Shown here: positions 18,003-58,618 of the stretch, one piece after another
Layout of the letters: the number at the start of each line of letters is the position of its first letter
How positions within the stretch are numbered: the first letter of the stretch is position 1
From: an uncultured Nitrososphaerota archaeon
GTDB lineage: Archaea > Thermoproteota > Nitrososphaeria > Nitrososphaerales > Gagatemarchaeaceae
NCBI GenBank assembly: GCA_963838925.1
Contig: CAWISW010000002.1
Coordinates: forward strand, 192,001 to 256,000
Direction: 5' to 3'
Length of the DNA stretch: 64,000 nucleotides
Notes under the pieces: generated by a model
The model's input: only the letters and a program-made list of their open reading frames with translations
What the model was told of the DNA's origin: nothing
Database searches by the model: none
Made by a program: the position numbers and the translations under genes

Positions 18003-18054
18003 GGGAATACGTTCGAAGTCGTCTTCCGGGCGGTTTTAACGGTTTATGGCGCCG

Positions 18055-23034: not shown

Positions 23035-23041
23035 TCTCAAC

Positions 23042-23830: not shown

Positions 23831-23831
23831 C

Positions 23832-38701: not shown

Positions 38702-38922
38702 AGGACTTCGCCCGAAGCCCGGAAGGGATTGAGTTGGCGACGCTGTGCATCGACCTCGGATACAAGCTCGCCCCCGAGGCCCGCGACCTCACGCGGATGC
38801 AGATCAACTTCCTCATGGCCGTGCTCGCGACGCGGGCGGAGTCGGCAGCGGTGGCGGACCTCGCAGAGCAAGGAGTCACGAGGATAGTGTTCAGGGACGA
38901 CGCCACGGAAGGCGGGAGTTGA
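38683..38922 (+). CDS. Tail assembly chaperone frameshift extension (T), -1 frame
   Basis: -1 frame is open from 38683 (KKRREVEDFARSPEGIELATLC...DLTRMQINFL). Confidence 0.7.
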   Translation, partial: KKRREVEDFARSPEGIELATLCIDLGYKLAPEARDLTRMQINFLMAVLATRAESAAVADLAEQGVTRIVFRDDATEGGS

Positions 38923-41900: not shown

Positions 41901-42304
41901 CTCGAGAGGGCCGCGGGAACGCCGAGGGGGTCTTCTTCGGCCTAGAGGCGGTCGCGCATGCCCTTTCGCTCGCTGCCAGGCTTCCGTCAGCCGCGCAGCT
42001 TAACGGCGCTCTCGCACCGATGCCCTCGAGGACCAGGGCGCCTGCCAAGGGCACGGCCCCAGCAAGGCAGGCAGCGAGGGAGGGCTCCTCGGAGGTCGGT
42101 TTCACGGCAGAGCCGTCCCGCCAGTCCGCCGAGGGCTGGAGGTCTGTCCCCGAAGAGTCAATCTCAAGGATGCTCGGAGAGCCGTCAGGCCGGCCAACGC
42201 CCCCCGCCCAAGACGCCGCTGTGGAACCTGACGACCGCGAGCTCCGGAGGAAGATCGAGAGGATCATCGACGAGGACCTTAGGAGGTACGGGTACCAGCC
42301 ATGA
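38930..42304 (+). CDS. 1124-aa Ala/Ser/Pro-rich low-complexity protein in tape-measure position
   Basis: Follows the TAC genes; helical-looking N- and C-termini (ELRRKIERIIDEDLRRYG) around a disorder-prone core. Confidence 0.65.
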   Translation: MAKRSESELDRLRKTVASYVKGLIVLGLAAQTLSSSGGSYLAVSRLIGAGIALASRLQRGIVVRVVGAPLVRRRPRRRSRAEASEEYPEPSGSAAEGATARDQASTGWEEVVPPSLALAEIDSQPFSLARALPSIVAAQQSTFRALSSVNAAVSRAVGGAGFASSPSRAPPSLTALEQGQRPSPEAFPENQATSFAGGMPALAAGVAFRAAASSMAFNLSSAAHEMTNIALGSQAVGANFASQQPRAAKEGTGFLPASPAAPSPSLAQQSITGNVDTTFKGAQPSGANLGLVSSAGGASPPTTQAPAAPSAALPLTRESSGAPGLSAEVGGPAAGSQSGGVTAGTSSSGSGVELNAGPYTVPNGFNSVLASPPVAAASRLSMQVRSLAASASSGQLPIRASQEPSHSGSPTQALSVVPEQYPSTYPVGAAYSVSSLVASLGLGQTGRPEAPASAQEEAAARLTPEEAPGAEDATRTSRGAFVGEPLEARGAGIGGGPSSPEETALGGPQVYAEEGGAVASSSDARISNAQPVASRGEFASFAPVFGKRWLQSIAEAASIGGAMLGMLTGSAALPWDGTWIQKVGAEARPTLPSRSVSGQAIAPPSSAVGGGRILGRGAIVPEAQAAPEARATQLSSTVSGQPIAPSSSGVDGSRASGRRELIPEVEAAPAGTATSPSATPASTEVPRGTEWRDLAKREEDISPTSGRNVPARPQEPESSQAPHRQAGISTWEAATLLPGILTPSLSAALSAQAPPSPSASLDLNSRPAVSISTSGLGLEGETAPRQSFDALRLAASLRSALLGVSASLMGARTTLPAESAMKPTLRPQLAQYLEATAGRGPGTFVSTGASGVSRRVDSFELSRAQRAREAFQGPTEVASFATTNLAALQAAFVSRGLIPGGAVGRAGSAPSLTIEAAGGEGQKATPGTLAPASRSPLARRALGQSSAAPELSSRELEERAHATNAGRDHSASRGVSPTSERDLEAVLASLSREGRGNAEGVFFGLEAVAHALSLAARLPSAAQLNGALAPMPSRTRAPAKGTAPARQAAREGSSEVGFTAEPSRQSAEGWRSVPEESISRMLGEPSGRPTPPAQDAAVEPDDRELRRKIERIIDEDLRRYGYQP
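40715..40936 (+). repeat. Imperfect 42-aa (126-nt period) tandem duplication
   Basis: VSGQAIAPPSSAVGGGRILGRGAIVPEAQAAP vs VSGQPIAPSSSGVDGSRASGRRELIPEVEAAP. Confidence 0.7.
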
Positions 42305-44481
42305 GCATCACCCTCGACGACATGGAGCTGGTGGCTCGCGACGAGGGCGACCCCGGGACCGTCAACGAGTTCAGGACCGTGAACCGGATATTCCTCAAGG
42401 GCAAGAGGCGCCTCGTCGAGACGAGGACGGCCGGCGCCGAAGGCAGCATCTTCGAGGACACGGGGAGAAGGGCCGCCGTCGTCGCCATCGAGGGCGAGAT
42501 GGTCGGGAAGACCGCGAGGACCAGCCTCGCCTCGCTGAAGACCAAGTACGACTCCAGCGAGCCCGTCTCGTTCTCCTCCGACATCTCTACCCTGGCGAAC
42601 ATCAGCCAGGTGGTCGTCGAGCGGCTCAGCATCCGCCAGCTGGCGGGGAAGGTCGACCACTACGAGTTCGCCATGACCCTCAAGGAGTACGTCTCCTCCG
42701 AAGCCCAGGACTCTTCGCCGCTTTCCCAGCTTGGCGATGCCTCCGCCGCGGTGGACGCGGTCGCCGCCGGTGAGCTCACCTCCGCGCTCGCCGACAGCGT
42801 CGACTCCAGCTTCGCCAGCGTCGAGGCGCTGAAGAACGCCGCCGAGCTTGACGTGCCCTCCCTCCTGAGCGACGCCAAGGGGCTGCTCGACGACGTGAAG
42901 GGCGCGGCCGCGGCCGAGATGGACGCCGCCGTGGAGGCAGCAGAGGAGAGCGCGAAGGAGGCGGAGGAAGCCGCCGAGCAGGCCTTCGACGAGGTGGTCA
43001 AGGTGGCGGAGGACTCCACCGAGGAGGTCCAGCAGGAGCTGGAGGCGACCGTCGAGAAGAGCAGGACCCTCCTGCAGGGGGTAATCGACGCCCTCCAGAG
43101 CGCCATAGACAAGGTGAACGAGGTCACCGACCGCATAGAGACGGATGTCCTCGAGAAGGCCCAGCAGTACGTCAAGGAGGCAGAGGACAAGCTCACAGGC
43201 CAGATCCGAGACACCGTCAACGAGGCGAGCAGCAAGCTCCAGGAGCTCATGGACGCGGGGAAGGAGCAGACCGACAAGGTCTTCGCTCTCATCCAAGATG
43301 TCATCGACAAGCTAGCCGCCGCGAAGGCTCAGATCGAGGCAAAGCTCGACTCGGCTAGCGAGAGCGCGGACGACCTCCTTGACAAAGCCACCGAGATGAA
43401 GTCGAGCCTCGAGCAGACCTTGGACGACGTCTTCCAAAAGGCCGCAGACGCGCTCGAGAAGGTCCGGGGGATCTCAGACCAGATGGCGGGCGCGGGAGAG
43501 GCCATCCAGGGGATCATCGACAAGTGCACGCAGTTCAAGCTTGACAAGGCCGCGGGCGCTGCGAAGAGCGCCAAGGACCTCCTCGAGAAGGCCGCGTCGA
43601 CCGCCGCCGAGGCGGTCTCGACGGTCACCGGGGCGCTCACTGACGCCAAGGGCCAGTACGAGGACATCAAGAGCACCCTCGACGGCGCCCTCGACGACCT
43701 CCGCGACGCCAAGGCGAAGGGCATCGAAGCGGTCAAGGGCGCGCTCGACAAGGTACAGAGCAAGGTGCTCGAGGTCCAGGCCACCGCGCAGAAGTTCGTG
43801 GACGACCTGTTCCAGAAGGCCAACGACCTTGTAACCGGGATCCAGCAGACGGTTCTGGCGACGCTCGACCAGCTCGTGGCCGACATCGACAAGATAGTCG
43901 AGACCGTGAAGGAGGGGATCCAGCAGGTACTCGAGGTCGCGCGGAAGACCGCCGTGGACGTGCTCACGCAGGCCCAAGACGCAGTGAGGGGGATCGAGGC
44001 GACCATCGAGAGCATCGGCCCCAAGCTCCAGGCCGAGAAGGACAAGGTAATCGCGCTGGTCACCGGGGCGAAGGAGCAGCTGGAGAAGGCGAAGGACGCC
44101 GTCACGACAGCCCTATCGAAGGTCAAAGAGGCCAAGGACAACGTGAGCGTCGGAGCGATAACCGACGCGATAAGCGCCATCAAGGACGCGGTGAAGGTTG
44201 TCAAGGACGCCGCCCAGTGGGCCACCCAGGCCGCGAAGGACGCTCAGGGCATACTCACGGCCGCCCTGGCGATTGCCGACGAGGTCAAGAAAGCGGCGAT
44301 GGACATGGCCGCGGCCTTCGAGAAGGCAGCCCAGGCCGTGAAGAGCGCAGCCGAGCAGGTCGCGGAGATTGCCGAGACGACCGCATCGTCCGTGGCGGAC
44401 CAGGCGAAGGGCGCCGCGGGAGACCTCGGCCAGGGCGTCGACAGCGTCACCGCAAAGGGGAAGGGAGCCCTTGGGAGTTAA
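42301..44481 (+). CDS. Tube-initiator-like (Mu gpN/DNA_circ_N-like) domain plus ~590-aa amphipathic helical region
   Basis: N-terminal ~130 aa is paralogous to 45060; the rest is A/D/E/K/Q-rich, nearly Pro-free and apolipoprotein-like. Confidence 0.7.
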   Translation: MSITLDDMELVARDEGDPGTVNEFRTVNRIFLKGKRRLVETRTAGAEGSIFEDTGRRAAVVAIEGEMVGKTARTSLASLKTKYDSSEPVSFSSDISTLANISQVVVERLSIRQLAGKVDHYEFAMTLKEYVSSEAQDSSPLSQLGDASAAVDAVAAGELTSALADSVDSSFASVEALKNAAELDVPSLLSDAKGLLDDVKGAAAAEMDAAVEAAEESAKEAEEAAEQAFDEVVKVAEDSTEEVQQELEATVEKSRTLLQGVIDALQSAIDKVNEVTDRIETDVLEKAQQYVKEAEDKLTGQIRDTVNEASSKLQELMDAGKEQTDKVFALIQDVIDKLAAAKAQIEAKLDSASESADDLLDKATEMKSSLEQTLDDVFQKAADALEKVRGISDQMAGAGEAIQGIIDKCTQFKLDKAAGAAKSAKDLLEKAASTAAEAVSTVTGALTDAKGQYEDIKSTLDGALDDLRDAKAKGIEAVKGALDKVQSKVLEVQATAQKFVDDLFQKANDLVTGIQQTVLATLDQLVADIDKIVETVKEGIQQVLEVARKTAVDVLTQAQDAVRGIEATIESIGPKLQAEKDKVIALVTGAKEQLEKAKDAVTTALSKVKEAKDNVSVGAITDAISAIKDAVKVVKDAAQWATQAAKDAQGILTAALAIADEVKKAAMDMAAAFEKAAQAVKSAAEQVAEIAETTASSVADQAKGAAGDLGQGVDSVTAKGKGALGS

Positions 44482-45076
44482 GCAGTCCTCGGACTCCGTC
44501 GCCTCCAAGGGGAGCGACGCGAGCAGCAAGGCCGACGACGCCGGTCAGCACGCGCAGAACGCCGACAACCTGCAGAAGCTCCAGCCCCCGGTCGACAAGG
44601 TGAACCAGACCGTCCAGAAGGCAGTCCCTCCCGCGCTCAGCGCCATCCAGACTGCCTTCGCTACCGCGCTCCAGGCGAGGAACCTCGCCCAGGCCGCGAG
44701 GATAACGCAAAGCCCCGCACAGCTCATGGTCGCCCAGGCGATGGTCGGAGGGGCGCTCGCCTCGGCACAGGCGGCCGCGGCGCAGATAGGCCAGTCCAAG
44801 GCCCTGGTGAGCGGGGCCAAGTCCATGATCCAGGGCGCGGCGGCCACGGCCAAGTCCGCGTCGGACCAGGCCAAGTCCAAGGCCAAGGAGGGCTCGGACA
44901 AGGCGAAGGCAGCAGAGGAGGGGGCGAAGGGCCAGGCGGACCAGGCGAGGTCACAGGCGAGCGAGCAGACAGAGGCTGCGAAAGGCAAGGCGCAGGCCGC
45001 GCAATCTCAGGCGACCGAGGGCGCGACGGCCGCGAAATCCCAGGGCGAGGGAGCACTAGATGGAAGTAAAGCTTGA
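44471..45076 (+). CDS. Ala/Gln/Lys-rich helical hypothetical protein
   Basis: Likely TTG start at 44471 after GGGAAGGGAG; overlaps both neighbours. Confidence 0.6.
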   Translation: MGVKQSSDSVASKGSDASSKADDAGQHAQNADNLQKLQPPVDKVNQTVQKAVPPALSAIQTAFATALQARNLAQAARITQSPAQLMVAQAMVGGALASAQAAAAQIGQSKALVSGAKSMIQGAAATAKSASDQAKSKAKEGSDKAKAAEEGAKGQADQARSQASEQTEAAKGKAQAAQSQATEGATAAKSQGEGALDGSKA

Positions 45077-45815
45077 CGACATCGACCTCGTGAAGCGGAC
45101 GCAGTCCTCCGCGACCTCGCCCCTCAGCGAGGTGAGGACGGTCTACGACGTCCACGTCGAGGGGAAGAGGAGCATCGTTGAGCTGAAGGTCCCCGGGTCG
45201 AGCGGGAACGTCCTCCAGGACATGGGCAGGGAGCCCATCACCATCCTCATCAAGGGAGAGGTCTGGGGCCCCGACGCCAAGGCCACGGTAACTTCGCTAA
45301 AGGCCAAGTCGGACACGGGGGACTCGGTCTCCTTCACCTCGGACCTCCTCGCCGCAGCCTCTGTGAGCGAGGTCATCGTCGAAGAACTCCAGGTGGACCA
45401 GATCGCCGGCAACCCGACGAGATATCGCTACCTCATGCTGCTGCGGGAGTTCAAGGAGGGAGGAGAGGCGACCGAGGGCGCGGCGAGCGAGACCGACGAG
45501 ATAGCGGAGCAGGAGGCCCGGGACCAAGCGGCTCAGGACGCGGCCGACGAGGCTGCCAAGGAGGGCGAGATACACGACATCCGGGTCCAGCTCCGGGACC
45601 ACGCGGGAGCCCTCATCCCGGAGGTCGAAGTGACCATCGAGGGGCCCGATGGGACTAACAAGTCGAAGACCGACGAGGAGGGCTACGTGGTCGTGAAGGA
45701 CGCCAAGGAGGGCACCTACGACATCTCGGTCTCTGACGACAGGTTCGGCGACGTCAGGGTGCAGGTCGAGGTGAAGAAGAAGGCGGGCGACCAAGGGGAG
45801 GAGGCCGGGGCATGA
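45060..45815 (+). CDS. Second tube-initiator-like domain plus C-terminal prealbumin/carboxypeptidase-regulatory-like domain
   Basis: R.IVE.KVPG..G.VLQDMGR; C-terminal TDEEG......GTY.I.V. Confidence 0.7.
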   Translation: MEVKLDDIDLVKRTQSSATSPLSEVRTVYDVHVEGKRSIVELKVPGSSGNVLQDMGREPITILIKGEVWGPDAKATVTSLKAKSDTGDSVSFTSDLLAAASVSEVIVEELQVDQIAGNPTRYRYLMLLREFKEGGEATEGAASETDEIAEQEARDQAAQDAADEAAKEGEIHDIRVQLRDHAGALIPEVEVTIEGPDGTNKSKTDEEGYVVVKDAKEGTYDISVSDDRFGDVRVQVEVKKKAGDQGEEAGA

Positions 45816-47649: not shown

Positions 47650-48666
47650 ATGGGAATCCACACTCTCATCAGGTCCAGCGACGTCAAGGACTACTTCAAG
47701 AGCGACGAAGAGTTCGACGACGTCTACGACAAGGCCGAGAACTACAGGGAGAAGATCCGCATCGCGGTCATCGACGAAGGCGTCCACAAGGACGCCGGTC
47801 TCCCGGACGTCCCGAAGGACGGATACCTCTCGGCCCGCTGCGTCAGCCACGTGGTCTCCTCTGGGATCGCCGAGTTCAACGAAAAGTCGATAAGCCACGG
47901 GACTCGCGTAGCCGCGATAGCGGTCTGGGGCAACCCCTGCCTTAACCTCCTGGACTATAGGGTAAGGACTCAGGCCGCGGTAGGTTCGATAGGGGCCCGG
48001 GAGGCGGACAAAGAAGTGCCGCTCGTGAAGACGGCGATGGAGGCGGCCGTCAAGGCCGAGGCATCGGTGATCGTCTCCGCGCTCGCCACCGAGAACAAGA
48101 AGAAGGTCTACAAGGACAACGGCGTCGACAAGCTCATCACCGACAACCCCAACGTCCTCTTCGTGTTCGGCGCTGGGAACAACGGCAGAGACCTCGACTC
48201 GTACGACGTCTGCCCAGCCGGCCTAGGCCCGGCTGACAACATGGTGATTGTGGGTGGCTGCAGCTCTCTCTTCGCGACCTCGGCGGCCCCGGACACCGGA
48301 GGGTCCGACATCCAGTTCGGCTTCGGAGGGAAGACGGTGGACGTTGCGAGCTTCGCCGACAACCTCACCCTCTACGACCCGGGACTCCGCTATTACTACG
48401 CCCAAGCCGCCGGGATGGACGTCGCCAAGATACCGCTCCTACCGGCCACCGACACGGGAGTCTCCTTCGCAATCCCGCAAGTCGCGAACGTCTGCGCCAA
48501 GATGCTCGCGATCAACTCACACTTGCGACCCAAGGACGTGAAGTACCTCATCAGGGAGACCGGCACAGACGCGAGAGGCCCCCTCGCGAGCGCGAACATC
48601 ACCAAAGGGACCATCGCTCCAAAGTCCTGCTACCTCGCGGCGGTCAAGTATGAGCCAGAGTCGTAG
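47650..48666 (+). CDS. Subtilase (S8) serine protease, candidate CIS cargo
   Basis: Triad motifs IAVIDEG, HGTRVA, GVSFA.P.VA and oxyanion GAGN; no signal peptide; true start ATG 47650. Confidence 0.85.
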   Translation: MGIHTLIRSSDVKDYFKSDEEFDDVYDKAENYREKIRIAVIDEGVHKDAGLPDVPKDGYLSARCVSHVVSSGIAEFNEKSISHGTRVAAIAVWGNPCLNLLDYRVRTQAAVGSIGAREADKEVPLVKTAMEAAVKAEASVIVSALATENKKKVYKDNGVDKLITDNPNVLFVFGAGNNGRDLDSYDVCPAGLGPADNMVIVGGCSSLFATSAAPDTGGSDIQFGFGGKTVDVASFADNLTLYDPGLRYYYAQAAGMDVAKIPLLPATDTGVSFAIPQVANVCAKMLAINSHLRPKDVKYLIRETGTDARGPLASANITKGTIAPKSCYLAAVKYEPES

Positions 48667-48739: not shown

Positions 48740-51424
48740 TTGTCGGAGCAGAATCGCGCGATAATCGTCCGTGCCGAGGCCGACCCCGAGTCCAACAGGT
48801 ACTCGCAGGCGACCTTCGACGTAAAGTTCCACTTCCTCAGCGAGGACTCCGGCAAGAGGATAGACTTCAAGCTCTTCGAGATAGAGAGGGACAAGGACGG
48901 AAAGGTCACCAAGAAGACTTTCGTCCCGGGCACCAAGGTCTCTGGCGTGCTCGAGAAGAAGTCCGGTGTCGGCAGGGCGGACTCGGAGAAGAAGGAGCTC
49001 GTCCCTGTCGCCTACCTGATGACCTTCAAACCCGACGGCGCAAGGCCAGACGTTGCAACGACCCTCCCCCGCATATCGTTCCTGTTCGACTCCTCGGCCA
49101 ACCCTTACTTCGTCCCGCTCCCCGACGGCAAGCCCCGCGAGCTCCAAGTCCGGATCAAGCTCACCCCTGACGGAAGCGGCGGCGCGAACTCCCCAGACCC
49201 CGCGGCGGCCGACTCGCCCGACGTGGTTGCCTCTCCCTACTTCAACGTCTCAGGGCACTTCATTGTGCCGGTCGGGGGGATGGCAACCTACGACTGGTAT
49301 TCGGGGAACGCGGTCACGTTCTACTCCAACGCGAGCAAGGACGACAAGGGAACCGAGGGCGCCTTCCACGACATCGGCGACGCCATAGCCAAGGCAAAAC
49401 ACTTCGTCCTCATCTGCGACTGGTCCTTCCACCCCTACATGCGGCTCGCCCACACCGAGAAGCCGGAGATCAAGGACACGATAGGCGGGATCCTCGTCGC
49501 AAAGGCGAAGGAGAACAAGGACATCCTGATCGCGATACACACGTGGGACCACCCTGTCGTGGGGGCTGCCAAGGACAGCGACAACGACTTCGCGCACATG
49601 CAGCTCCGGGACATCGCCCGGGCGCTCGCCAAGCCGGACGAGAAGGTCGACTGGAAGCCTCCCAACCTCCTCTGGCGCGCCAGCACGCACACGGGGGTCG
49701 GCTACTCGCACCACCAGAAGATGGTCGTCGTGGACTGCGAGGCCGAGGGCCAGAAGGGCCGCAGGGACATCAAGGTCTTCTTCGGCGGGCTCGACCTGAC
49801 CAAGGGACGATTCGACTGGTGGGCGCACCCTATCATGCCGCCCCCGGAGTCGAACCCAGAGGCGAAGGCGAAGGAGGCCACCGCCTTCGACGCGACGAGC
49901 TCCGGCTTCGTCAAGGCCATCCCTGCCACGGGCTACGGGTACCGCTCGCTGGGCGGCCTCTCCAAGCAGGCCTTCGACGGGTTCAGCGTCCTGACCGAGT
50001 ACGAGTACGACGACTGGTACAACGCCGAGTTCGGCGGCAACCAGGAGATGCCCAGGCAGCCATGGCACGACATCCACGCCCAGCTGACCGGCCCGACAGC
50101 CTGGGACATGGTTAGGGAGTTTGTCGGGAGGTGGAACGTCGATCCTGCCTCCCCCGAGGCGCGCGGCGACAGGAACGTCGACGCCGTGACCAGGGTCGTC
50201 GGCAAGTTCGCGTTCATCCTCTCCGAGAGGACCGAGGACGACAAGAACTTCCTCTTTGTCCAGCAGTATGAGAAGAGGGACCCGAAGGACGGGCAGTTCA
50301 TCGGCCAGGTCCTGAGGTCGATAAAGAAGGAGCATTGGGGCCCGCCCTCCGTGGGCAACTGGTTCCCCACCAAGGTGCAGGTCGTTGGGGCATCGCCGAA
50401 GGAGTTCGAATGGATACTCAACTGGGGCTCAGAGAGCAGCATCCAGGAGGCGTACGTCCGGGCCATCGCGGGGGCGCAGAGGTTCGTCTACATCGAGAGC
50501 CAGTACTTCATCGGCGCCGGGGTCGCATACGCCAAGAGCGTCAACAACAAGATCCCGAAGACCATCGTGAAGAGGGTGCTGCAGATGATCGAGAACAAGA
50601 AGCCCTTCCACGTCTACGTCGTAATCCCGATGTACCCAGAGGGGAACCCCGACGAGGGCGCCCTCCGCGTCGTGAGGGAGTACGAGGCGAGCACGATGGA
50701 GTACATCGCCACGAACGTCCAGAACGCTTGCGAAGCGCAGGCGAAGAAGGACTCGAGCTTCAAGGGCACCTGGAAGGACTATGTCTCCTTCTACTTCCCA
50801 GCGCGGTGGGACAGGAGGGGTAAGGTCGACATCTCCGGCAAGAGGCAGAAGCGGGTCTCCGCGAACCAGAGGTACATGATCTACGTCCACTCGAAGCTGA
50901 TGATAGTCGACGACGAGTTTGTAATAGTCGGGAGCGCAAACCTGAACGAGAGGAGCCTCGCGGGGGACCGCGACACGGAGATCTGCATAGGCATGACGGC
51001 GCAGGACCAGGCCGCGCGCACGCAGGTCCAGAACTTCAGGCTCGACCTTTGGAGCGAGCTGCTGGGCAATGCAAAGGCAAAGGCCCAGCCTAAGGACGCG
51101 TGGAAGACCCCTGAGACGGCGGGGTGCGTCGGGGACATCAAGGTGAGGGCCACGAACAATTACGTCGGGCTGAGGACGAACTCCGCCACCGACACCAGCG
51201 GGTTCCTCTGCATCTTCCCGATTGACTGGGAGAAGGGGAAGAAGGGCGACTGGAACCCGGTCTTCTTCAGCGATCCGAACCACAAGGACGTGGACTGGCT
51301 GGTCATGCCCGACGCCGACAACGAGGGGACCCGCTGGATAGACAAGACCACCTGGCGATGGGACTCTCCCGGGGCGATGCGGTCCTCGGGCGCTATCATC
51401 CGCCTGACGGACCTCCCGGAGTAG
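48740..51424 (+). CDS. Eukaryote-like phospholipase D (two HKD motifs), candidate CIS effector
   Basis: SHHQKMVVVD, GGLDL..GR.D, PRQPWHDIH, YIESQYF, VVIP.YPEG, IYVHSKLMIVDD..IVGSANLNERS..GDRDTEI. Confidence 0.93.
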   Translation: MSEQNRAIIVRAEADPESNRYSQATFDVKFHFLSEDSGKRIDFKLFEIERDKDGKVTKKTFVPGTKVSGVLEKKSGVGRADSEKKELVPVAYLMTFKPDGARPDVATTLPRISFLFDSSANPYFVPLPDGKPRELQVRIKLTPDGSGGANSPDPAAADSPDVVASPYFNVSGHFIVPVGGMATYDWYSGNAVTFYSNASKDDKGTEGAFHDIGDAIAKAKHFVLICDWSFHPYMRLAHTEKPEIKDTIGGILVAKAKENKDILIAIHTWDHPVVGAAKDSDNDFAHMQLRDIARALAKPDEKVDWKPPNLLWRASTHTGVGYSHHQKMVVVDCEAEGQKGRRDIKVFFGGLDLTKGRFDWWAHPIMPPPESNPEAKAKEATAFDATSSGFVKAIPATGYGYRSLGGLSKQAFDGFSVLTEYEYDDWYNAEFGGNQEMPRQPWHDIHAQLTGPTAWDMVREFVGRWNVDPASPEARGDRNVDAVTRVVGKFAFILSERTEDDKNFLFVQQYEKRDPKDGQFIGQVLRSIKKEHWGPPSVGNWFPTKVQVVGASPKEFEWILNWGSESSIQEAYVRAIAGAQRFVYIESQYFIGAGVAYAKSVNNKIPKTIVKRVLQMIENKKPFHVYVVIPMYPEGNPDEGALRVVREYEASTMEYIATNVQNACEAQAKKDSSFKGTWKDYVSFYFPARWDRRGKVDISGKRQKRVSANQRYMIYVHSKLMIVDDEFVIVGSANLNERSLAGDRDTEICIGMTAQDQAARTQVQNFRLDLWSELLGNAKAKAQPKDAWKTPETAGCVGDIKVRATNNYVGLRTNSATDTSGFLCIFPIDWEKGKKGDWNPVFFSDPNHKDVDWLVMPDADNEGTRWIDKTTWRWDSPGAMRSSGAIIRLTDLPE

Positions 51425-51437
51425 GAGATGGCGAGGT

Positions 51438-52403
51438 TTGCTGAAGCCGTCCTACAGCCTCTCGATGGGCTCTGCGAGCGTCGACCCGGACTCTAGCACC
51501 GACCTTATCTCGCTGAGGATAGACACTTCGATGAACGGCCCCGCAGGATGCTTCGAGGCCGTCCTCCGTTCGTCTGGGGGGCTGAGCGTCTCAAGGGGCG
51601 ACTCGATCACAGCCTCCCTGGGGTACGACGACACGGAGAACGTCTTCACCGGCGTGGTCGACGTAGTCGACGCGGGCTTCCACACGGTGAGGGTTTTCGG
51701 GCTCAACTCCATCGCCAAGATGATGCGCCGGCGCGCCAACACGTCCTACGAGTCCCAGACCTGCGGTGCGATCGTCTCCGACATGGCCGGGACGGCCGAG
51801 GTCACGCCGGGGGACGTCGAGGACGGCCTCACTCTTCCTTACTACATCGTCGACAGCGACATGTCCTTCCACGAGCACACGATGAGGCTCGCGAGGAGGA
51901 ACGGCTTCGACGTCTTCGCGAACGCCGACGACGAGCTCTGCTTCAAAGCTTACGAGGCATCCTCGGCAACAACCTTCGAGTACGGCAAGGACGTCATCCA
52001 TGTCTCGAGGCTCGACCAGGAGCCGGTCTACAAGGGAGTCAAGGTCTTCGGGGAGAGCCCCTCGAGCTCCCAGGGGGAGGACTCGATTCACTGGCTCACA
52101 AAGACCCCCGTCCAAGGCGAGAGCGGCAGCGGCAACGAGCTCATCGTCCAGGACGCCTCCCTCAGGGACACCGACTCCGCCGGATCTGCTGCCGAGGCGA
52201 TCCAGGGGCGATTCTCAAAGTCAATCGCCGTCATCCTCGACGTCGTGGGGAACGCCGCCGTGAAGCTCAACGACACCGTCGAAATCTCGGAGATGCCAGA
52301 CTCTTCCATCAACGGGGAGTATCAGGTTACCCGAGTGGAGCACTTCCTCGCAAAGTCCAAGGGATTCACCACGTCCTTCCGCCTCCTCGGTTCGTCGGAG
52401 TGA
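51438..52403 (+). CDS. Baseplate hub protein (late control D / gp27-like)
   Basis: LGY.....VFTG.V, LARRNGF, G.Y.V..VEH.....GF.T. Confidence 0.85.
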   Translation: MLKPSYSLSMGSASVDPDSSTDLISLRIDTSMNGPAGCFEAVLRSSGGLSVSRGDSITASLGYDDTENVFTGVVDVVDAGFHTVRVFGLNSIAKMMRRRANTSYESQTCGAIVSDMAGTAEVTPGDVEDGLTLPYYIVDSDMSFHEHTMRLARRNGFDVFANADDELCFKAYEASSATTFEYGKDVIHVSRLDQEPVYKGVKVFGESPSSSQGEDSIHWLTKTPVQGESGSGNELIVQDASLRDTDSAGSAAEAIQGRFSKSIAVILDVVGNAAVKLNDTVEISEMPDSSINGEYQVTRVEHFLAKSKGFTTSFRLLGSSE

Positions 52404-52480: not shown

Positions 52481-52906
52481 ATGAGCGAAGAGAAGCCCGT
52501 TCTTGGCAAGGACCTTCGACTCGTCTACGCGGACGTCGGCGCAGACCTCAAGGTCTCCCCGTCCGGTGACCTCGAGCTCGTCGACGACGAGCTCAACCTG
52601 GGCCAGGCGATAGTCCACAGGATGAGGACCCGTCCCGGGGAGCTCCTTGACATCGGGCACTCCTCCTACGGCTCAAAGCTCTACGACCTCATCGGGGAGC
52701 CCAACAACGAGGCCACGCGGGAGAAGGTGAGGGCGGTGGTCATCGAGGCCCTCGAGAGGGAGCCACGAGTGAAGAAGGTCGTGAAGGTCTCTGTGACGGT
52801 GAGGAGGGACAGGCCCGACGCCGTAGACGTAGACGTGAGCCTCATCGCGACGGACACTGAGGTGCCGCTCAACGTCGTCTTCCCGTTCTACCTGGAGAAC
52901 GCATAG
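52481..52906 (+). CDS. Baseplate wedge protein gp25/GPW
   Basis: NL.QAI..R..T..GEL...GH..YGS.L..LIGEP, L..EPRV. Confidence 0.9.
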   Translation: MSEEKPVLGKDLRLVYADVGADLKVSPSGDLELVDDELNLGQAIVHRMRTRPGELLDIGHSSYGSKLYDLIGEPNNEATREKVRAVVIEALEREPRVKKVVKVSVTVRRDRPDAVDVDVSLIATDTEVPLNVVFPFYLENA

Positions 52907-52907
52907 C

Positions 52908-54521
52908 ATGTCCTACGAGACCAAGTCCTTCGAGGAGATCACGACGTCGATGCTCGAGCAGCTCACCAAGGCGGTCGTGAGGGAGAACCTGGTCTACGAC
53001 CCGACCAAGGTCAGATACCGCCTGGGCTCCGGCGAGGACGGAATCCGCGACGTGGTCAAGGTCGAAGGCCCGGTGAAGGGGGTGCGGGCGTCCTTCGCAA
53101 AGGGGACCGACTATCGGCTCTCGGAGGGGATGTTTGAGTGGTTAGAGGGCGGGAAACGACCCGACGTCATGTCGACGTTCGAGGTCTCATACCTCTTCGG
53201 TAGCCCGTCGCCCATCACGGACGTCAACCCGGGGAGCGTCGTTCGGACCATCATCGAGGCCATAGGCCGGGAGATCGAGTACCTGTACGCCCAGAACGAC
53301 TACGTCTACAAGGCGGGGTTCATAGACACCGCCTCCGGCAACTCGCTTGACCTCGTGGTCGCGATCCTCGGCGTGCAGAGAAGGCCTGCCCAGAACGCGG
53401 CGGGGCTGGTGACGTTCGGCAGGAGGAAGCCCCCGCCGGAGTTGCCTCCACAGGAGCAGGTGATAGTCTATGACGGAGGGAAGAAGTACGACCTGAAGCG
53501 GACGCCGGTCTTCGACATCATCAGCGTCAAGGGAATGCTGCACAACCAGCCGTTCGTCTTCAAGAAGGGTGCGGACTATTCCCTCGACGGCGACTCGCTA
53601 TCGTGGCTCGAGAGCACGTTCAAGCCCGACTACCGCTCAGAGTTCAGGGTCGCCTACAAGGCGTACCAGCAAGTGGCCATACCGAAGGGGACCCGGCTCT
53701 CCACCTCCTCCCGCCGTAAGCAGGAGGTGAAGCTCTTCGAGACCACAGATGAGGCTGTCCTCCAGAGGAAGCCGCTGGGCGTTTGGGAGGTCGACGTCCC
53801 CGTGAAGGCCGTGGACGCGGGCCCCGGGGGCAATGTGCTTTCGGGAAGCATCACGCTGATGCCTCAGCCGGTCGAGACGATAGAATTCGTGGTCAACAGG
53901 CAGCCCTTGAGCGGGGGCACCGAGCCAGAGACCGACAACGTCCTGAGGGACAGGGCGAAGAAAGGGCTCCGGGCACTTGGACGCGCCACATACAACTCGC
54001 TCAAGCAGCGCATCGAGGAGATTGACGGCGTCGTCAGGCCCGTGAGGATAGACGAGATGCCCGTCCTCTACTCCGTGGAGATGGGGGGGAGCGCGGTGGA
54101 CCTGCCGGTCCCGGGCGTGGTCAGGGTCATCGTCGACGGAGGGGAGATGGACAAGATCAAACAGGCGGTCGACGACACTAGGGCCGCGGGCGTATACGTC
54201 CAGATACTTCGGCCTAAGTTCCTGCTGCTCGACGTCCGGGTGCTCCTGGAGCTACAGGACGGGACCCAGCTCGCCGACGTCGAAGAGGCGATCAAGGACG
54301 GGGTGGAGGCCTACGTCGGCTCCGTCACGACAGGCGAGACGGTGATATTCGGGAGGCTCGTAGCCGTCGCGCTGGCCTCGAAGGGGGTGAGGGACGTCAA
54401 GGGCATCGCCGTGGACTACTACAGGGACGGCCAGCCGGGCGGCAGCAGCTCCAGGGAGAACATCGTGCTAGACGCGGACGAGAAGCCAAGGGTCAGGACA
54501 GTGAGCGTGCTAGTCGGGTGA
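52908..54521 (+). CDS. Baseplate J/gp47-like protein with two inserted beta domains
   Basis: D.NPGSV.RT..EA, IDTA.G..LD, A.G.VTF, GG...ETD..LR.R. Confidence 0.9.
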   Translation: MSYETKSFEEITTSMLEQLTKAVVRENLVYDPTKVRYRLGSGEDGIRDVVKVEGPVKGVRASFAKGTDYRLSEGMFEWLEGGKRPDVMSTFEVSYLFGSPSPITDVNPGSVVRTIIEAIGREIEYLYAQNDYVYKAGFIDTASGNSLDLVVAILGVQRRPAQNAAGLVTFGRRKPPPELPPQEQVIVYDGGKKYDLKRTPVFDIISVKGMLHNQPFVFKKGADYSLDGDSLSWLESTFKPDYRSEFRVAYKAYQQVAIPKGTRLSTSSRRKQEVKLFETTDEAVLQRKPLGVWEVDVPVKAVDAGPGGNVLSGSITLMPQPVETIEFVVNRQPLSGGTEPETDNVLRDRAKKGLRALGRATYNSLKQRIEEIDGVVRPVRIDEMPVLYSVEMGGSAVDLPVPGVVRVIVDGGEMDKIKQAVDDTRAAGVYVQILRPKFLLLDVRVLLELQDGTQLADVEEAIKDGVEAYVGSVTTGETVIFGRLVAVALASKGVRDVKGIAVDYYRDGQPGGSSSRENIVLDADEKPRVRTVSVLVG

Positions 54522-55444
54522 CGATAGAATTGGAGAGGACCAGGCGGATTGCTGACAGGCTCCCCGAGTTCTACAGGACCTGGGACACCGACTCCGTCAT
54601 CTTCAAGGTCCTCGACTCGGTGGGGCGGTCCCTCAACGAGGAGCAGAAGAGCGTCTTCCGCATCATGCGGACACACTGGGTGGACACCGCCAACCGCGGC
54701 GACCTCGACAAGCTGGGCGCGATATTCGAGCTCACGAGGACCAACGAAGAGGCCGACGACGACTATCGCGCACGAATCAAGAGCGCGCTCCGGCAGTTCA
54801 AGGGCGGCGGCACAGTGGCATCCGTCAAGACTCTGATGGCCGACTTCCTCTCCGTGAGGGAGGAGGAGCTTGAGGTAGTGGAGAACCCCGAGCGCAAAAT
54901 GTCGATTGAAAAGAGAGTCGCGGGCGGCCAGACCTGGACCCTCGGGAGCATGAGCGTCGAGGAGGCCTCCCCGGTGATCGAGATGACGCTCCAGGGCGAG
55001 GGGAATGTCGTGCTAAACCCGGCGCTGAGGAACCTGGACTCGGGCGGGCGCGTGGGCTTCGAAGGGCGGTTCAGGGTCGGCCAGAGGCTGGTCATGAGCG
55101 AGGGCTCCGCCACACTCGACGGGGAAGACGTCTCGTCTTTGGTCACCGCCTCGCCCGCGTTCCCGAGGCTCAGTTCGGGCGGCTCGCGCTGGGTCTACGA
55201 GGAGGCCATCTCGGCGAAGGTCGGCCACCTCTCGAAGAGCTCCTTCGGCTCCTCGATCTTCGCCCTTCCGGTGCCCGACGCGGTGATACGCCTGACCTGG
55301 TCAGGGAGGCAGCCCTCTACCTTCGCGCTGCGGGTCCCTCCGAGGGCACTGGCGGCCAGCGGTGTGTCCGAGGGCGAGGCCGCGGACTTTCTTAATACTA
55401 TAAAGGGAGCAGGCGTGCGGGCAGAACTGGTTGTGAAGGAGTAG
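54518..55444 (+). CDS. Baseplate wedge protein (P2 gpI-like)
   Basis: LP.FY, .DTA...DLD.LG, E.DD.YR.RI, GGT; C-terminal IK.AGV. Confidence 0.75.
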   Translation: MTIELERTRRIADRLPEFYRTWDTDSVIFKVLDSVGRSLNEEQKSVFRIMRTHWVDTANRGDLDKLGAIFELTRTNEEADDDYRARIKSALRQFKGGGTVASVKTLMADFLSVREEELEVVENPERKMSIEKRVAGGQTWTLGSMSVEEASPVIEMTLQGEGNVVLNPALRNLDSGGRVGFEGRFRVGQRLVMSEGSATLDGEDVSSLVTASPAFPRLSSGGSRWVYEEAISAKVGHLSKSSFGSSIFALPVPDAVIRLTWSGRQPSTFALRVPPRALAASGVSEGEAADFLNTIKGAGVRAELVVKE

Positions 55445-55451
55445 AGCCCCG

Positions 55452-56105
55452 TTGACCAGCTTCAAGCCAAAGATCGCGCAGCCTGGGGACACCATCACCG
55501 CGGACGACTGGAACTACATCCAGCAGGGGATCCTCGAGGACCTCGTGCGACTGGAGGCCGAGAACGCGGAGCTGAGGAGGTACGTGGACAACATGTCCGA
55601 GATCAACACGATAACCCGCCTGGACAGCCCGGAGGGCAAGTCCTACGGGCTCGACGAGAAGGTCCCGGGCGAGACCGGCACCTACGGGACCGACCTGCTC
55701 GGCTTCATCACGAAGCAGTGGCTACCGTCGGTCAGGGCCGCCTCGGTCGACATATGCCGCTTCACCGTCGCCAACCTCTTCGACCAGCTCGACTTTTGGG
55801 CCGGCGCAGAGAACGGAAACCAAAAGGCGCTGGACGTCTCCATCAGGTACGTGGACGGCTCCACGGAGACCGTGAAGAACCTCGTCGTCCACGAGAGGAA
55901 GAAGCTCTCCGCGAAGGGGGCCGAGAACCCCTACGTCGAGTTCCTGCTCGCCCCCAACCAGTGGGTGTGGTACAGGTACAGGCTGCCCAACCCCCACCCG
56001 GACAGGGAGGTTCTCTCAGTGACTTTCAAGAACTCCAATCCAAAGTCGACCACCAGGATTGCCGACGTCATGCAGCTCAGGACGAAGATCAAGCAGCTGA
56101 AGTGA
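55452..56105 (+). CDS. CIS-associated protein (possible short fibre/receptor-binding)
   Basis: N-terminal PGD.ITA.DWN motif as seen in tail-fibre-adjacent proteins, a short coiled coil and a beta-rich C-domain. Confidence 0.55.
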   Translation: MTSFKPKIAQPGDTITADDWNYIQQGILEDLVRLEAENAELRRYVDNMSEINTITRLDSPEGKSYGLDEKVPGETGTYGTDLLGFITKQWLPSVRAASVDICRFTVANLFDQLDFWAGAENGNQKALDVSIRYVDGSTETVKNLVVHERKKLSAKGAENPYVEFLLAPNQWVWYRYRLPNPHPDREVLSVTFKNSNPKSTTRIADVMQLRTKIKQLK

Positions 56106-56108
56106 TCT

Positions 56109-56825
56109 TTGGTGCTAAGCGAGATCTCCAGCGGGCTCGTGAAGGCGCTCCAGGAGAGGATGGAGAGCGTAAACAAGGAGAACATAGCCTCGCGCTCGCC
56201 GCGCCTCGACCCGGTGCCCCTCCCAGCCTTGTTCGTATACAGCCCCAACTTCACGTTTGAGGACGTAGGCCTCGGCGGCGAGGGCGTGGAGGTGAAGGAG
56301 GAGAAGCGGGAGTCGTTCAGCGGGGACGGCTCGCGGACGGTCTTCTCCCTGGCAGGCAAGGCCCAGAGGCCCCTCCTGCGCGTCGAGTCGTCCACGGGGC
56401 ACCTTCAGATAGAGAACGTGGACTACAAGATGGACTACAGCAGGGGGACGATAACCTTCCGCGCGCCTCCGCCCAAGGGCTCTGAGAACGTCTCGGTCAA
56501 GTACAACTCCGCGGCGGGCGCGGGCAAGACGAAGCAGATCCACATGAACGCCACCTACAACGTCGAGGTCTGGTCGGGGAACGAGAAGCAGAGGGACGAC
56601 ATCACGGTGGACGTGATAAAGGCGGTCGCCCTCGCGCAGGAGGACTTCGCGAACAGGGGGATGCTGGTCAAGCCGGTGGAGGGCGTAGACCTCTATGCTT
56701 CCAAGGAGCTGCCAGGCGGGGTCTTCGCGAAGCGCCTGGTCTACTCCGTCGAGGCGAACCTGCAGGTGAAGATTCCAGCCTCGAGAATCGAGCGGGTGGA
56801 CGTGAGGCAGCTCCCGCCCAAGTGA
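56109..56825 (+). CDS. Tail terminator/cap-like protein with inserted beta domain
   Basis: Helix-P.L-beta layout, Y..EVWS....RD; inserted GDG...F.L...DY..DY..G.I.F domain. Confidence 0.55.
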   Translation: MVLSEISSGLVKALQERMESVNKENIASRSPRLDPVPLPALFVYSPNFTFEDVGLGGEGVEVKEEKRESFSGDGSRTVFSLAGKAQRPLLRVESSTGHLQIENVDYKMDYSRGTITFRAPPPKGSENVSVKYNSAAGAGKTKQIHMNATYNVEVWSGNEKQRDDITVDVIKAVALAQEDFANRGMLVKPVEGVDLYASKELPGGVFAKRLVYSVEANLQVKIPASRIERVDVRQLPPK

Positions 56826-56837: not shown

Positions 56838-57470
56838 ATGAGCGGAATAGTCGAGGCGATGAAGAAGGTCGCGGAGTCGGAGGTGGGGAAGGTCCACGTG
56901 GCCGAGCTCGGCGTCGTCACATCGGTCTTCCCCCACGCCGACGAGGGCGACAACGACAACTACGAGTGCAGCGTGAAGCTCAGGGACAAGGACGTCGAGC
57001 TCCGGCAGGTCCCAGTCGCGACGCAGCACATAGGGTTCGCGAGCATCCCACAGGTGGGGGACCTCGTCCTGGTCTCGTTCGTCAATGGGGACGTCAACGC
57101 CCCAGTCATCACTGGGCGCCTCTACAACGACGAGGACCGCCCCCCCGCATCACAGGCAGAAGAGATGGTCTACATCCCTCCCTACACCTCGAACCCTGAC
57201 CTCCGCAGGATATACATCGAGCTGCCCGACCAGACGGTCACTCTCACCATCCAGGACGAGAAAGTGACAATCCACGTCGGGGACACCGACGTCGCAATAA
57301 GCAAGGAGGAGGGCGTCAGCCTCACCTCGAAGCTGCCGATATCGATAAGCACCGAGGACGACCTCTCGATAAAGGCGAAGAACGTCAAGATAGAGAGCGA
57401 CGCCGACACCGAGATCACGGCGAGCGGAAAGACCACGATCAAGGGGACCACCGTGGACCTCAACCCGTAG
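56838..57470 (+). CDS. Spike protein (gpV/gp5/VgrG C-terminal-like)
   Basis: OB-fold G.V...., P.VGD.V.V.F..GD...P...G.LYN, followed by beta-helix repeats. Confidence 0.9.
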   Translation: MSGIVEAMKKVAESEVGKVHVAELGVVTSVFPHADEGDNDNYECSVKLRDKDVELRQVPVATQHIGFASIPQVGDLVLVSFVNGDVNAPVITGRLYNDEDRPPASQAEEMVYIPPYTSNPDLRRIYIELPDQTVTLTIQDEKVTIHVGDTDVAISKEEGVSLTSKLPISISTEDDLSIKAKNVKIESDADTEITASGKTTIKGTTVDLNP

Positions 57471-57479: not shown

Positions 57480-57797
57480 ATGCCAGCCGCCGCCCGCCAG
57501 ACTGATCCGGTGCAAGGCAACTGCAGCCACGGCTGCCCCATATGCCCCCACCCGGTCGTGGGGATTGTCTCCGCCGGCTCGCCGACCGTGCTCATAAACA
57601 GCCTGCCTGCAGCGAGGCAGGACGACAAGGGGCTGCACGCCCCCTGCTGCGGCCCGAACAACTTCACCGTCGCAAAGGGCTCTGGTACCGTGAACATCAA
57701 CGGAAAGCCGGCCGCGAGGAGCGGGGACAGCACAAAGCACTGCGGAGGCGACGGCTCGATACAGAACGGTAGCCCGACCGTGAACATAGGAGGCTAG
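57480..57797 (+). CDS. PAAR-domain spike tip protein
   Basis: AAAR, PAAR, PAAR repeats with metal-binding Cys/His. Confidence 0.95.
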   Translation: MPAAARQTDPVQGNCSHGCPICPHPVVGIVSAGSPTVLINSLPAARQDDKGLHAPCCGPNNFTVAKGSGTVNINGKPAARSGDSTKHCGGDGSIQNGSPTVNIGG

Positions 57798-57800: not shown

Positions 57801-58618
57801 GTGCCCGCCCCAGACGCGAAGATGTTCGCTCAGCTCGCGAAGACCCAGTACCTTTCCAAGGGGGTGAGCCTCCCGCCGAGCTGGGACTCGGGGCTCGAGG
57901 ACGACGTCAACGGCAAGACCCCGGAGTTCGGCCCCGGGTCCCGAAGCCCACGAACCTGTTCATGCCGCCCAGCCCCAAGAAGATAGCGGTCGACGCGGCC
58001 AACGCGATAAGCGACGGCTTCAACGGGTTCATCGACGACGTCGCTGCGGCGGTCTGCGGCGCCTGGGCGAACTGGCAGAGCTCGGTGAAGTTCGTGGGCG
58101 TCATCATCAACGGTCCGATCGGGATCCTTCCCCCCGCGGGGATGATAGGAGGGGGGATGATGGCCACGCCCATGATAATGTCTCAGTTCAACCAAAAGTC
58201 CGCGAACTACACTCTCTACGGGAGCGCCGTTGCGTTCGCGATAGGCCAGGCGTGGACCGCGTGGGAGCTGGGGTACACCAACCCCGCCATCCCGTTCCCT
58301 GGCGGCGCAGCGGCCTCTGCCACGATGCCTCCCTCTCCCAACACCCCCGTCCCGCTCGCCTCGGGAGTCTCTCCCGGGGACGCGCTGATGCAAGGAGCGG
58401 CCCTGAAGGGATTGATGATGAGTCAGGTCGCCCCTCCGGGCCTGCACGACGACGAGCTCTTCGACTCCATAGCCCAGGCCTTCGCCCAGGTCTTCCTCAC
58501 GTGGAAGGGCACGTCGATGATAAGCAACATAATGGGCGCGGGGGGCGTCGCTCCTCCTCCGCCCGCGCCTCCAGGGCCCGTTGCCGGTGCCATAGGCAGC
58601 GGCGGGGCCGTGCAGTAG
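57801..58618 (+). pseudogene. Gly/Pro/Ala-rich CIS-associated gene split by an apparent 1-nt frameshift near 57936-57938
   Basis: Adding one G to GGG joins ORF 57801 (..EFGPG) to the 57962 frame (VPKPTNLFMPP..); could be an assembly error. Confidence 0.55.

Follow-up and report, generated by a model that had tools for sequence, protein, structure and literature searches.

Phospholipases D (PLDs) of the HKD superfamily and of 'eukaryotic' type are known as type VI secretion system (T6SS) effectors of Pseudomonas aeruginosa, in which the genes of the Tle5 enzymes PldA and PldB are followed by genes for periplasmic Tli5 immunity proteins. Here we describe a PLD gene of the same superfamily and type in an archaeon, at positions 48740-51424 of the plus strand of a 64,000-nucleotide stretch, hereafter the window, from an uncultured Nitrososphaerota archaeon (C2:192001-256000 of a 3-contig, 1.84-Mb assembly; completeness 87%, contamination 1.7%). 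Like Tle5, it lies in a contractile-injection locus with spike and hub genes nearby and its product has no signal peptide. Unlike Tle5, with which it shares only 17-19% identity in structural alignments, it adjoins a gpD-like hub gene instead of a canonical VgrG gene, has no downstream immunity gene, and differs in its N-terminal domain, its transthyretin-like partner and its archaeal host. No such partner was found described for Tle5 in the literature searched on Tle5 and PLDs with injection systems. We regard the window PLD as a candidate phospholipase effector of an injection system, new in Nitrososphaeria and in having a novel predicted docking partner.

Among other described relatives, plant PLD-alpha1 and the mammalian PLD1/PLD2 enzymes share the PRQPWHD, YIESQYF and GSANLNERS-type regions with the window PLD, but overall identity is about 21% and fold searches did not identify the N-terminal domain of the window PLD as C2 or PX-PH. 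As to the machine, R-type tailocins are likewise chromosomal headless contractile tails with tape measure, chaperones and housekeeping flanks. Tailocins carry holin-lysin cassettes and act by puncture, with no enzymatic payload known for them, whereas the window cluster encodes a PLD together with a protease and a repeat scaffold, and lysis genes were not recognised in it. The cluster also resembles the extracellular contractile injection systems (eCIS; Afp, PVC and MAC) in its headless series of sheath, tube, baseplate, spike and PAAR genes, and differs from them in having no Afp15-like AAA+ ATPase in the scanned open reading frames (ORFs), in its Mu/P2-like order and in having the candidate payload inside the operon. 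Some archaea carry eCIS (10 loci in the survey, in the part available, PMC6899500), and a PGAP1-like lipase toxin, EAT17, has been reported for eCIS (available text of PMC11297309). No HKD PLD payload of an eCIS was met in the literature found, whose survey supplements may list PLD domains. The T6SS-like system of the haloarchaeon Halogeometricum borinquense belongs to a different phylum and is membrane-bound, whereas the window cluster has a tape-measure-position ORF and chaperone-like ORFs typical of free tails; its toxins have downstream immunity genes, and in the available part of the source none is described as a phospholipase or lipase (PMC11566945). The available portions of PMC6899500 and PMC11566945 make no mention of Nitrososphaeria or Thaumarchaeota, and the eCIS survey supplements may list such loci. 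Genes for subtilisin and for components like those of contractile injection systems (CIS) are listed in 'prophage regions' of Caldarchaeales metagenome-assembled genomes (MAGs), as far as the accessible text goes (PMC10547907). In the literature searched on CIS, eCIS and Tle5 with archaea, the stem Nitrososphaer and phospholipase, we met no account of a PLD encoded within an injection locus of an archaeon.

An apparently intact phospholipase D

The gene and its landmarks are as follows.

48740..51424, plus strand: phospholipase D, 894 amino acids
48740-49273, plus strand: N-terminal beta-sandwich
49709-49735, plus strand: first HKD motif, HHQKMVVVD, residues 324-332
50051-50071, plus strand: PRQPWHD, residues 438-444
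50489-50509, plus strand: YIESQYF, residues 584-590
50888-50914, plus strand: second HKD motif, HSKLMIVDD, residues 717-725
Residues 731-739: GSANLNERS
Residues 742-748: GDRDTEI

All of the motifs that the first-pass annotation had read in this ORF (both HKD motifs, PRQPWHD, YIESQYF, GSANLNERS and GDRDTEI) were thus located in the 894-amino-acid product. The start codon is TTG, with a Shine-Dalgarno-like GGGTGA 6 nt upstream, and it fits, because orthologues begin with the same MSEQNRAIIVRA. The protein matches the Pfam families PLDc (E 1.9e-13) and PLDc_2 (E 5.5e-10) and has the two HxK(x)4D motifs and downstream GSxN region that mark the HKD PLD superfamily; 65 aligned PLD homologues show no variation at H325, K327, D332, H717, K719 or D724. 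Over the whole protein no 19-residue window has a Kyte-Doolittle mean of at least 1.6, so that by this crude test there is no signal peptide or membrane segment, in agreement with the earlier reading.

The best-matching solved relatives by sequence are plant PLD-alpha1 (6kz8, E 6.6e-59), human PLD1 (3.6e-29), human PLD2 (2.1e-25) and the P. aeruginosa PAO1 phospholipase D 7v53 (4e-25). The AlphaFold2 model of the PLD (pLDDT 86.2, pTM 0.84) retrieved with Foldseek the plant entry 6kz9 (E 6.1e-46), PLD1/2 (about 1e-33) and the PldA entries 7v55, 7wdk and 7v53 (about 1e-30), with Streptomyces PLDs at just about 1e-16. Since the closest solved relatives by both sequence and fold belong to the PLD1/2, plant-alpha and Tle5 branch and not to Streptomyces PLD, cardiolipin synthase or Nuc, the kinship originally proposed for the enzyme is right, and the gene, judged from its sequence, encodes a catalytically intact HKD PLD of that type. 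The label 'eukaryote-like' that came with it holds for fold and motifs. Outside the archaeal clade, however, the nearest named relatives come from bacteria (Nannocystaceae, Enhygromyxa, Planctomycetota and Chloroflexi; 35-44% identity).

A variable slot in a contractile-tail cluster

The PLD gene belongs to an insert of about 7 kb that lies exactly at the junction between a DUF6046 gene and the gpD-like hub gene and comprises g235, a second DUF6046 copy, g588, an S8 protease gene and the PLD gene. The other genes of the insert and those that flank it are listed below.

42301..44481, plus strand: DUF6046 hub-like N-terminal domain with a tape-measure-like helical region, 726 amino acids (Pfam DUF6046, E 4.1e-7; PHROG tape-measure families, down to E 5.7e-12)
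44369..45076, plus strand: g235, Ala/Gln/Lys-rich, first accessory gene, true start uncertain
45060..45815, plus strand: second DUF6046 copy with C-terminal CarboxypepD_reg (transthyretin-like) domain (Pfam), 37% identical to the first copy over 131 amino acids
45812..47578, plus strand: g588, made up of five transthyretin-like repeats in tandem (45881-47503), to which the PLD is predicted to dock
47650..48666, plus strand: S8 subtilase, 338 amino acids from ATG 47650 (Pfam Peptidase_S8, E 1.2e-11)
51438..52403, plus strand: gpD-like baseplate hub (weak Pfam Phage_GPD, E 0.0027)
52481..52906, plus strand: gp25-like sheath initiator (Pfam Sheath_initiator, E 3e-8; GPW_gp25, E 1.9e-6)
52908..54521, plus strand: baseplate J-like wedge protein (Pfam Baseplate_J, E 5.2e-25)

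The same insert, with unchanged gene order, is present in the archaeal MAG contig L002, with g235 at 56% and the S8 subtilase at 72% identity. In two metagenome contigs, L030 and L032, a PLD gene lies immediately upstream of gpD, gp25 and J, and L030 has no S8 gene between g588 and PLD. Identities to the window are as follows.

L002: PLD 65.5%, gpD 76%, gp25 83%, J 78%
L030: PLD 42%, gpD 79%, gp25 89%, J 82%
L032: PLD 40%, gpD 81%, gp25 89%, J 76%

The slot occupant therefore diverges far faster than its neighbours, with 40-66% identity for the PLD against 76-89% for the flanking baseplate genes. A search of 301 genomes of the class with baseplate J found homologues in 7 other genomes (42-44% identical). 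In the five of these loci that were compared, the order is sheath, tube, chaperones, tape measure, DUF6046 (164-177 amino acids), gpD, spike, gp25, J and three baseplate genes. In L024, L027 and L028 gpD directly follows the DUF6046 gene, and the L024 cluster is flanked by housekeeping genes such as that of a PfkB kinase. Neither these five genomic loci nor two further loci with the cluster from IMG/VR gave a tblastn match to g235, g588, S8 or PLD. In L112, one of the IMG/VR loci, DUF6046 is present twice and a gap of 0.9 kb separates the genes at the DUF6046-gpD junction. Several families of the class carry the headless cluster, with sheaths that are 54-63% identical. The slot is thus kept in four archaeal contigs and empty in related clusters, and the PLD, missing in 7 related loci and present in 4 at 40-100% identity, is by these comparisons an accessory gene of an archaeal cluster of contractile-injection-like type, conserved yet dispensable, as would befit an effector. 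In one of the PLD-less relatives (L026 of genome G278, 16432-18636, minus strand), a 734-amino-acid Het-C protein (E 5e-14), which may be a different effector candidate, is encoded about 2 kb past the PAAR and zinc-ribbon genes.

An objection raised with the first annotation was that orthologues might occur routinely as housekeeping lipid enzymes away from such loci. A full-length PLD was found in 1 of the 301 genomes of the class, the window's own, so the gene is not housekeeping in this lineage. Eight other genomes gave just 30-80-residue matches around the HKD motif, in frames of 217-544 amino acids, and these do not overlap with the 7 genomes that have J homologues.

Relatives of the phospholipase D

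The family is large: 5035 cluster representatives match at E <= 0.001, of which 347 do so at E <= 1e-30. The closest named homologue of the window PLD is a protein from a Nitrososphaerota MAG. In a quick maximum-likelihood tree of 58 rows (12 locus translations and 46 of about 240 proteins, the L047 row being frameshifted and on a long branch), the window, P0003-P0007 and L002 form a clade that joins P0008 and L030 (both with an SH-aLRT support of 100). L032 is on a long branch outside that clade in the free tree. A single clade of CIS-linked PLDs was not rejected by the approximately unbiased (AU) test (p 0.654), the constrained tree being 9.7 log units better, and since the test is compatible with one clade we dropped an independent acquisition of the L032 PLD.

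Searches of viral and plasmid collections with the PLD returned little: no relative in IMG/VR, nothing beyond remote PLD folds from giant viruses and poxviruses in the BFVD fold search, a partial match in 1 of 50,697 phage records, and 35 plasmid records with matches, all below 60% identity and 50% query coverage. In all three loci tested for the more distant PLDs (24-30% identical), the PLD gene directly follows a canonical VgrG gene, one with Phage_GPD, Phage_base_V, T6SS_Vgr and DUF2345 domains. These loci were drawn from the 8 of 59 distant-PLD loci with spike-like tblastn matches. The superfamily therefore includes classical spike-linked effectors.

The non-PLD N-terminal extension of about 170 amino acids noted at first is real, at about 178, and is alignable in most of the 65 PLD homologues. 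Residues 1-178 are predicted to fold as a nine-strand beta-sandwich (pLDDT 80.4). The extension is a conserved domain of this bacterial and archaeal PLD subfamily, neither peculiar to this gene nor specific to CIS. We also considered the domain as a portable delivery module. A word-based search with residues 1-175 found 6 proteins, all of them close-clade PLDs; at the sensitivity of such a search there is therefore no sign of the N-terminal domain fused to other toxins.

A conserved partner and its predicted docking

The g588 gene, two genes upstream of PLD, was overlooked by the first-pass annotation. It encodes five repeats of about 100 residues with weak Pfam signals of the DUF4198 and CarboxypepD_reg type, and a tblastn search with it gave matches just upstream of PLD in many metagenome loci. 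The single-domain partners in those loci are signal-less, about 130-185 amino acids long, and often end at most a few bases from the PLD start. A hidden Markov model (HMM) built from nine of these upstream domains matches g588 five times (E 1e-27 to 3e-37), L002 five times, and L030, which is cut by the contig end, three times. Among the 16 loci with usable upstream DNA (L030-L050), the partner domain is found upstream of PLD in 13, the others being L034, L038 and L040; it is a single copy in bacterial-type loci, whereas five repeats are seen only in CIS loci. The HMM found no match in the 59 loci with distant PLDs (L051-L109), nor in the PLD-less archaeal loci.

The predicted complex of the PLD with repeat 5 of g588 reached ipSAE values of 0.70, 0.77 and 0.80 (median 0.77), against 0.00 for the best of 3 controls; the runs share at least 68% of contacts and the partner has a pLDDT of at least 80. 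Of 80 solved complexes 58 attained the pass mark, as did 2 of 110 mismatched pairs, a calibration that is only rough here because custom alignments were used. The predicted interface takes in residues 4-189 of the PLD N-terminal domain and linker, as well as 452, 509-514 and 549-553, and lies apart from the HKD motifs. It contains the best-conserved positions, S165 and P166 of the PLD (nearly invariant) and T81, V82, L93, P94 and R97 of the repeat. The model thus supports binding and predicts that the PLD uses its N-terminal beta-sandwich to dock on a g588 repeat of transthyretin-like type. The absence of an adjacent immunity gene, as first noted, accordingly needs a distinction: it is true downstream, where the gpD-like hub starts 13 nt past the PLD stop, but upstream there is the predicted PLD-binding g588 two genes away.

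Two metagenome loci have other gene combinations near the PLD. L034 (6774-12948, plus strand), on a 34%-GC contig, encodes a 562-amino-acid protein with four CarboxypepD_reg domains two genes upstream of PLD, a 328-amino-acid protein in between, and a TPR protein after PLD. The TPR protein is reminiscent of Tli5 immunity proteins of the Sel1/TPR type. The 328-amino-acid gene was tried as a counterpart of the S8 protease, given its same position, and has no similarity to it (E 1.5). In L049 (6666-12313, plus strand), a single-domain partner is followed by an 827-amino-acid protein of no known family and then PLD; the 827-amino-acid protein may be a second client of the partner.

The remainder of the cluster

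The structural genes outside the slot and its immediate flanks are the following.

36552..37904, plus strand: contractile sheath (Pfam Phage_sheath_1, E 3.6e-15), the sole sheath match in the genome
37914..38321, plus strand: tube protein, 135 amino acids (phrog_365 tail protein, E 8.4e-4), 42-69% identical to the same-position gene in related loci
38330..38922, plus strand: two small ORFs (123 and 62 amino acids) in tail assembly chaperone position, assigned by position and without family match, kept at 59-69% in related loci
38930..42304, plus strand: 1124-amino-acid Ala/Ser/Pro-rich protein in tape-measure position, no Pfam or PHROG match
54518..56825, plus strand: three baseplate-region genes (308, 217 and 238 amino acids), the first with phrog_1160 (E 4.4e-17), all kept in related loci
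56838..57470, plus strand: spike OB-fold protein, 210 amino acids (Pfam Phage_base_V, E 4.6e-8)
57480..57797, plus strand: PAAR tip protein (Pfam PAAR_motif, E 1.4e-14)
57962..58618, plus strand: Gly/Ala/Pro/Met-rich protein, 218 amino acids, one hydrophobic window, no family match
58621..59403, minus strand: membrane-anchored double-zinc-ribbon protein (Pfam DZR, E 5.9e-10) with an N-terminal hydrophobic segment

From sheath to PAAR (36552-57797, 22 kb) all genes are on the plus strand with short gaps, and the PLD gene, 73 nt from the S8 gene and 13 nt from that of the gpD-like hub, shares their orientation. A headless cluster that unites sheath, tube, gp25, J, spike and PAAR is a contractile injection system in the broad sense, which bears out the context first assigned to the PLD. 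No HK97 capsid or Terminase_6N match was found in the 87%-complete genome. Pfam detected neither T6SS_Vgr nor DUF2345 in the cluster ORFs, and the OB-fold spike lies 5.4 kb from PLD. Judging by gene content, the cluster is a headless contractile tail of CIS or tailocin-like kind with a Mu/P2-like gene order, and it may make either free particles or a membrane-anchored device.

Some of these genes have further traits. The protein in tape-measure position is of low complexity, its conservation with L002 being limited to the C-terminal 125 or so amino acids. The 57962-58618 protein is the most conserved of the cluster (92% in L002), yet has no tblastn match in the PLD-less loci, and g235 is missing from those loci. 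A DZR domain also adjoins PAAR in L025 and L026. By a Kyte-Doolittle scan the S8 subtilase has no hydrophobic window and hence no signal peptide.

The host and the other genes of the window

That the host is an archaeon, as had been supposed, is borne out by a full-length archaeal small-subunit rRNA (1475 bits) on contig C3 of the same assembly, by the start of an archaeal large-subunit rRNA on the same contig, and by the closest cluster relatives being in genomes of the same class. It is taken to be a soil member of the Nitrososphaerales, akin at order level to the ammonia-oxidising Nitrososphaeria, in a small family of 4 genomes. The window encodes a Rio1-type kinase and ordinary housekeeping genes. 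Directly upstream of the contractile cluster are genes for a PLP enzyme and an Nramp transporter, along with further housekeeping genes. A search for amoA, run without a positive control, gave no match in the genome.

Beyond the cluster, the window holds these features.

11251-12291, minus strand: 346-amino-acid protein, matching FtsZ only weakly (89.9 bits; cut-off 295), a divergent gene of the tubulin/FtsZ family
20984-25435, plus strand: histidine phosphatase, Ppx/GppA, two tandem thymidylate-kinase-like genes and a CHAD-domain protein
25479-26509, plus strand: region of a 323-amino-acid LAGLIDADG or homing-endonuclease-like ORF, whose end overlaps a tRNA-Gln gene by 15 nt
26436-26509: tRNA-Gln, the sole tRNA gene in the window
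59449-60417, minus strand: 322-amino-acid protein with 5 hydrophobic segments, adjoining the injection cluster

The phosphate-related run at 20984-25435 is possibly a polyphosphate module. The protein at 59449-60417 has a match, narrowly over the cut-off (E 1.3e-6), to Neur_chan_memb, which stands for the membrane-spanning part of pentameric ligand-gated ion channels.

Possible roles: cargo, inhibitor, release factor or passenger

We lean, if only slightly, towards the PLD being a particle-borne enzyme that attacks the membrane lipids of a cell hit by the device. By analogy with Tle5 the cargo role proposed at the outset is plausible, and what speaks for it is an intact PLD, a dispensable slot gene and its absence as a housekeeping gene in the class. 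In such a mechanism g588 would be a scaffold or chaperone that holds the signal-less PLD, could carry several copies of it and would possibly keep it off the producer's membrane. The PLD would travel with the particle, and its folded size of about 100 kDa leads us to propose that it is mounted outside, at the baseplate or spike, and not in the tube lumen. After contraction it would hydrolyse phosphodiester head groups of target membrane lipids, as T6SS Tle5 enzymes do. The steps of loading and delivery that go beyond the slot and the predicted binding to g588 are drawn from the Tle5 precedent.

Several observations weigh against this reading. The first, which also tempers the cargo role as first claimed, comes from bacterial-type loci: in L044, L049 and L050, where neighbour ORFs in high-GC DNA were chosen by the GC content of third codon positions (GC3), no recognisable injection genes were found among the 10 scanned neighbours of the partner-PLD pair, whose Pfam matches were TauE, OmpA and PG_binding_1, with 7 of the 10 having no match. 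Since the examined bacterial pairs stand alone, the pair is not intrinsically CIS cargo; it appears to be an autonomous module that was taken in by the archaeal cluster and whose partner domain was multiplied there. No link of g588 to any structural CIS protein emerged, and the complex prediction covers the whole PLD with repeat 5 of g588 only (106 residues), from custom alignments. The N-terminal domain model gave nothing at E <= 0.001 with Foldseek against the PDB, and in the VIA fold search its best match had a Z of 6.2, in a tie of generic MG/FN3-like beta-sandwiches; the T6SS BtaeB N-terminal domain entries 9jdh (Z 6.0) and 9jg8 (Z 5.8) are within these generic matches and do not stand out, so that they serve at most as a lead, and the 50 VIA rows include no C2 entry. 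Pfam found no AAA+ ATPase domain among the scanned ORFs between 36.5 and 62.3 kb, shorter ORFs being outside the scan. The toxins of eCIS are usually encoded downstream of the operon and not in its middle (in the available text of PMC11297309). Finally, the runs listed with the locus are four soil DNA runs of one study, with no RNA run among them.

The idea that archaeal ether lipids provide self-immunity, part of the first-pass annotation, fits the lack of a downstream immunity gene in the window, as opposed to the haloarchaeal toxins with their downstream partners (available part of PMC11566945). A more far-reaching version is doubtful. According to it, a pentavalent g588 scaffold would dock up to five PLDs, the enzyme would be tuned to bacterial or eukaryotic ester lipids with sn-glycerol-3-phosphate, the ether-lipid producer would need no immunity protein, and the 'lipid divide' would serve for self/non-self discrimination in inter-domain warfare, the pair having been captured from bacteria and its partner domain amplified.

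Of the other readings the one that survives best, tentative as it is, makes g588 chiefly an inhibitor of immunity type, which would cover the N-terminal beta-sandwich, a possible membrane-binding domain (compare the C2 domain of plant enzymes), and keep the PLD inactive in the producer. It is compatible with the cargo reading. The predicted interface does cover most of the N-terminal domain and touches the catalytic body at 452, 509-514 and 549-553, partner and PLD are both cytoplasmic by sequence, and bacteria with the pair, having ester lipids, would presumably need protection; however, the interface avoids the HKD residues, the five tandem repeats look more like a scaffold, and immunity genes known from T6SS and, in the available part of the source, from the haloarchaeal system are downstream of their toxins, whereas g588 is upstream (PMC11566945).

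It is improbable, in our judgement, that the accessory genes form a release module in which the S8 protease would break the producer's protein S-layer and the PLD its membrane, and thus free the particles. In bacterial tailocin and eCIS loci, holin-endolysin cassettes serve this purpose. Both enzymes are without signal peptides or membrane segments and are embedded in the structural operon, the archaeal envelope consists of a protein layer and a membrane, Pfam and PHROG scans recognised no other lysis gene in the cluster, and eCIS are thought to exit by lysis (available text of PMC11297309). However, the seven related clusters without both enzymes would need release too, and the PLD of L030 is accompanied by no S8 gene between it and g588. 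The predicted conserved binding partner also accompanies the PLD in free-standing bacterial pairs, and the module would need an HKD PLD able to cleave sn-glycerol-1-phosphate ether or tetraether lipids.

We give equally little credence to the partner-PLD pair being a resident passenger, that is, a self-contained two-subunit lipid enzyme for turnover or signalling that landed in a permissive junction and has no injection role. In L044 and L050 the two genes of the pair stand by themselves between neighbours on the opposite strand, and the DUF6046-gpD junction is variable, as L112 illustrates. A mere passenger would nevertheless have to be reconciled with a PLD in the same slot in four independent archaeal contigs, co-oriented with its flanking genes at gaps of 73 and 13 nt, with a full-length copy in only one of the 301 genomes, with a partner domain expanded to five repeats in CIS loci only, and with a PLD that evolves much faster than its neighbours.

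Last, a decaying provirus tail, in which the PLD would be a leftover virion or moron gene of an archaeal myovirus without current function, is very improbable: the genes of the tail module do follow a Mu/P2-like order (sheath, tube, chaperones, tape measure, hub, gp25, J), two relatives are listed as viral contigs in IMG/VR, and Mu-like proviruses are reported in Caldarchaeales MAGs (accessible text of PMC10547907), but all ORFs are intact, the headless cluster with housekeeping flanks recurs across several families of the class (sheath 54-63%), the genome has no capsid or terminase match, and the PLD is nearly absent from phage records (one partial match) and has no relative in IMG/VR.

Implications

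Archaeal injection-system effectors are almost unknown and none in the literature found is a phospholipase. The partner-PLD pair is, besides, an unannotated two-protein module that is widespread in bacteria such as Nannocystaceae. If the PLD is built into the machine, it would be a testable candidate for antagonism of an archaeon against a bacterium, or a eukaryote, by a soil relative of the ammonia-oxidising archaea, and if the reading is true it would make it possible to test directly whether the ether lipids of archaea shield them from a weapon aimed at lipids.

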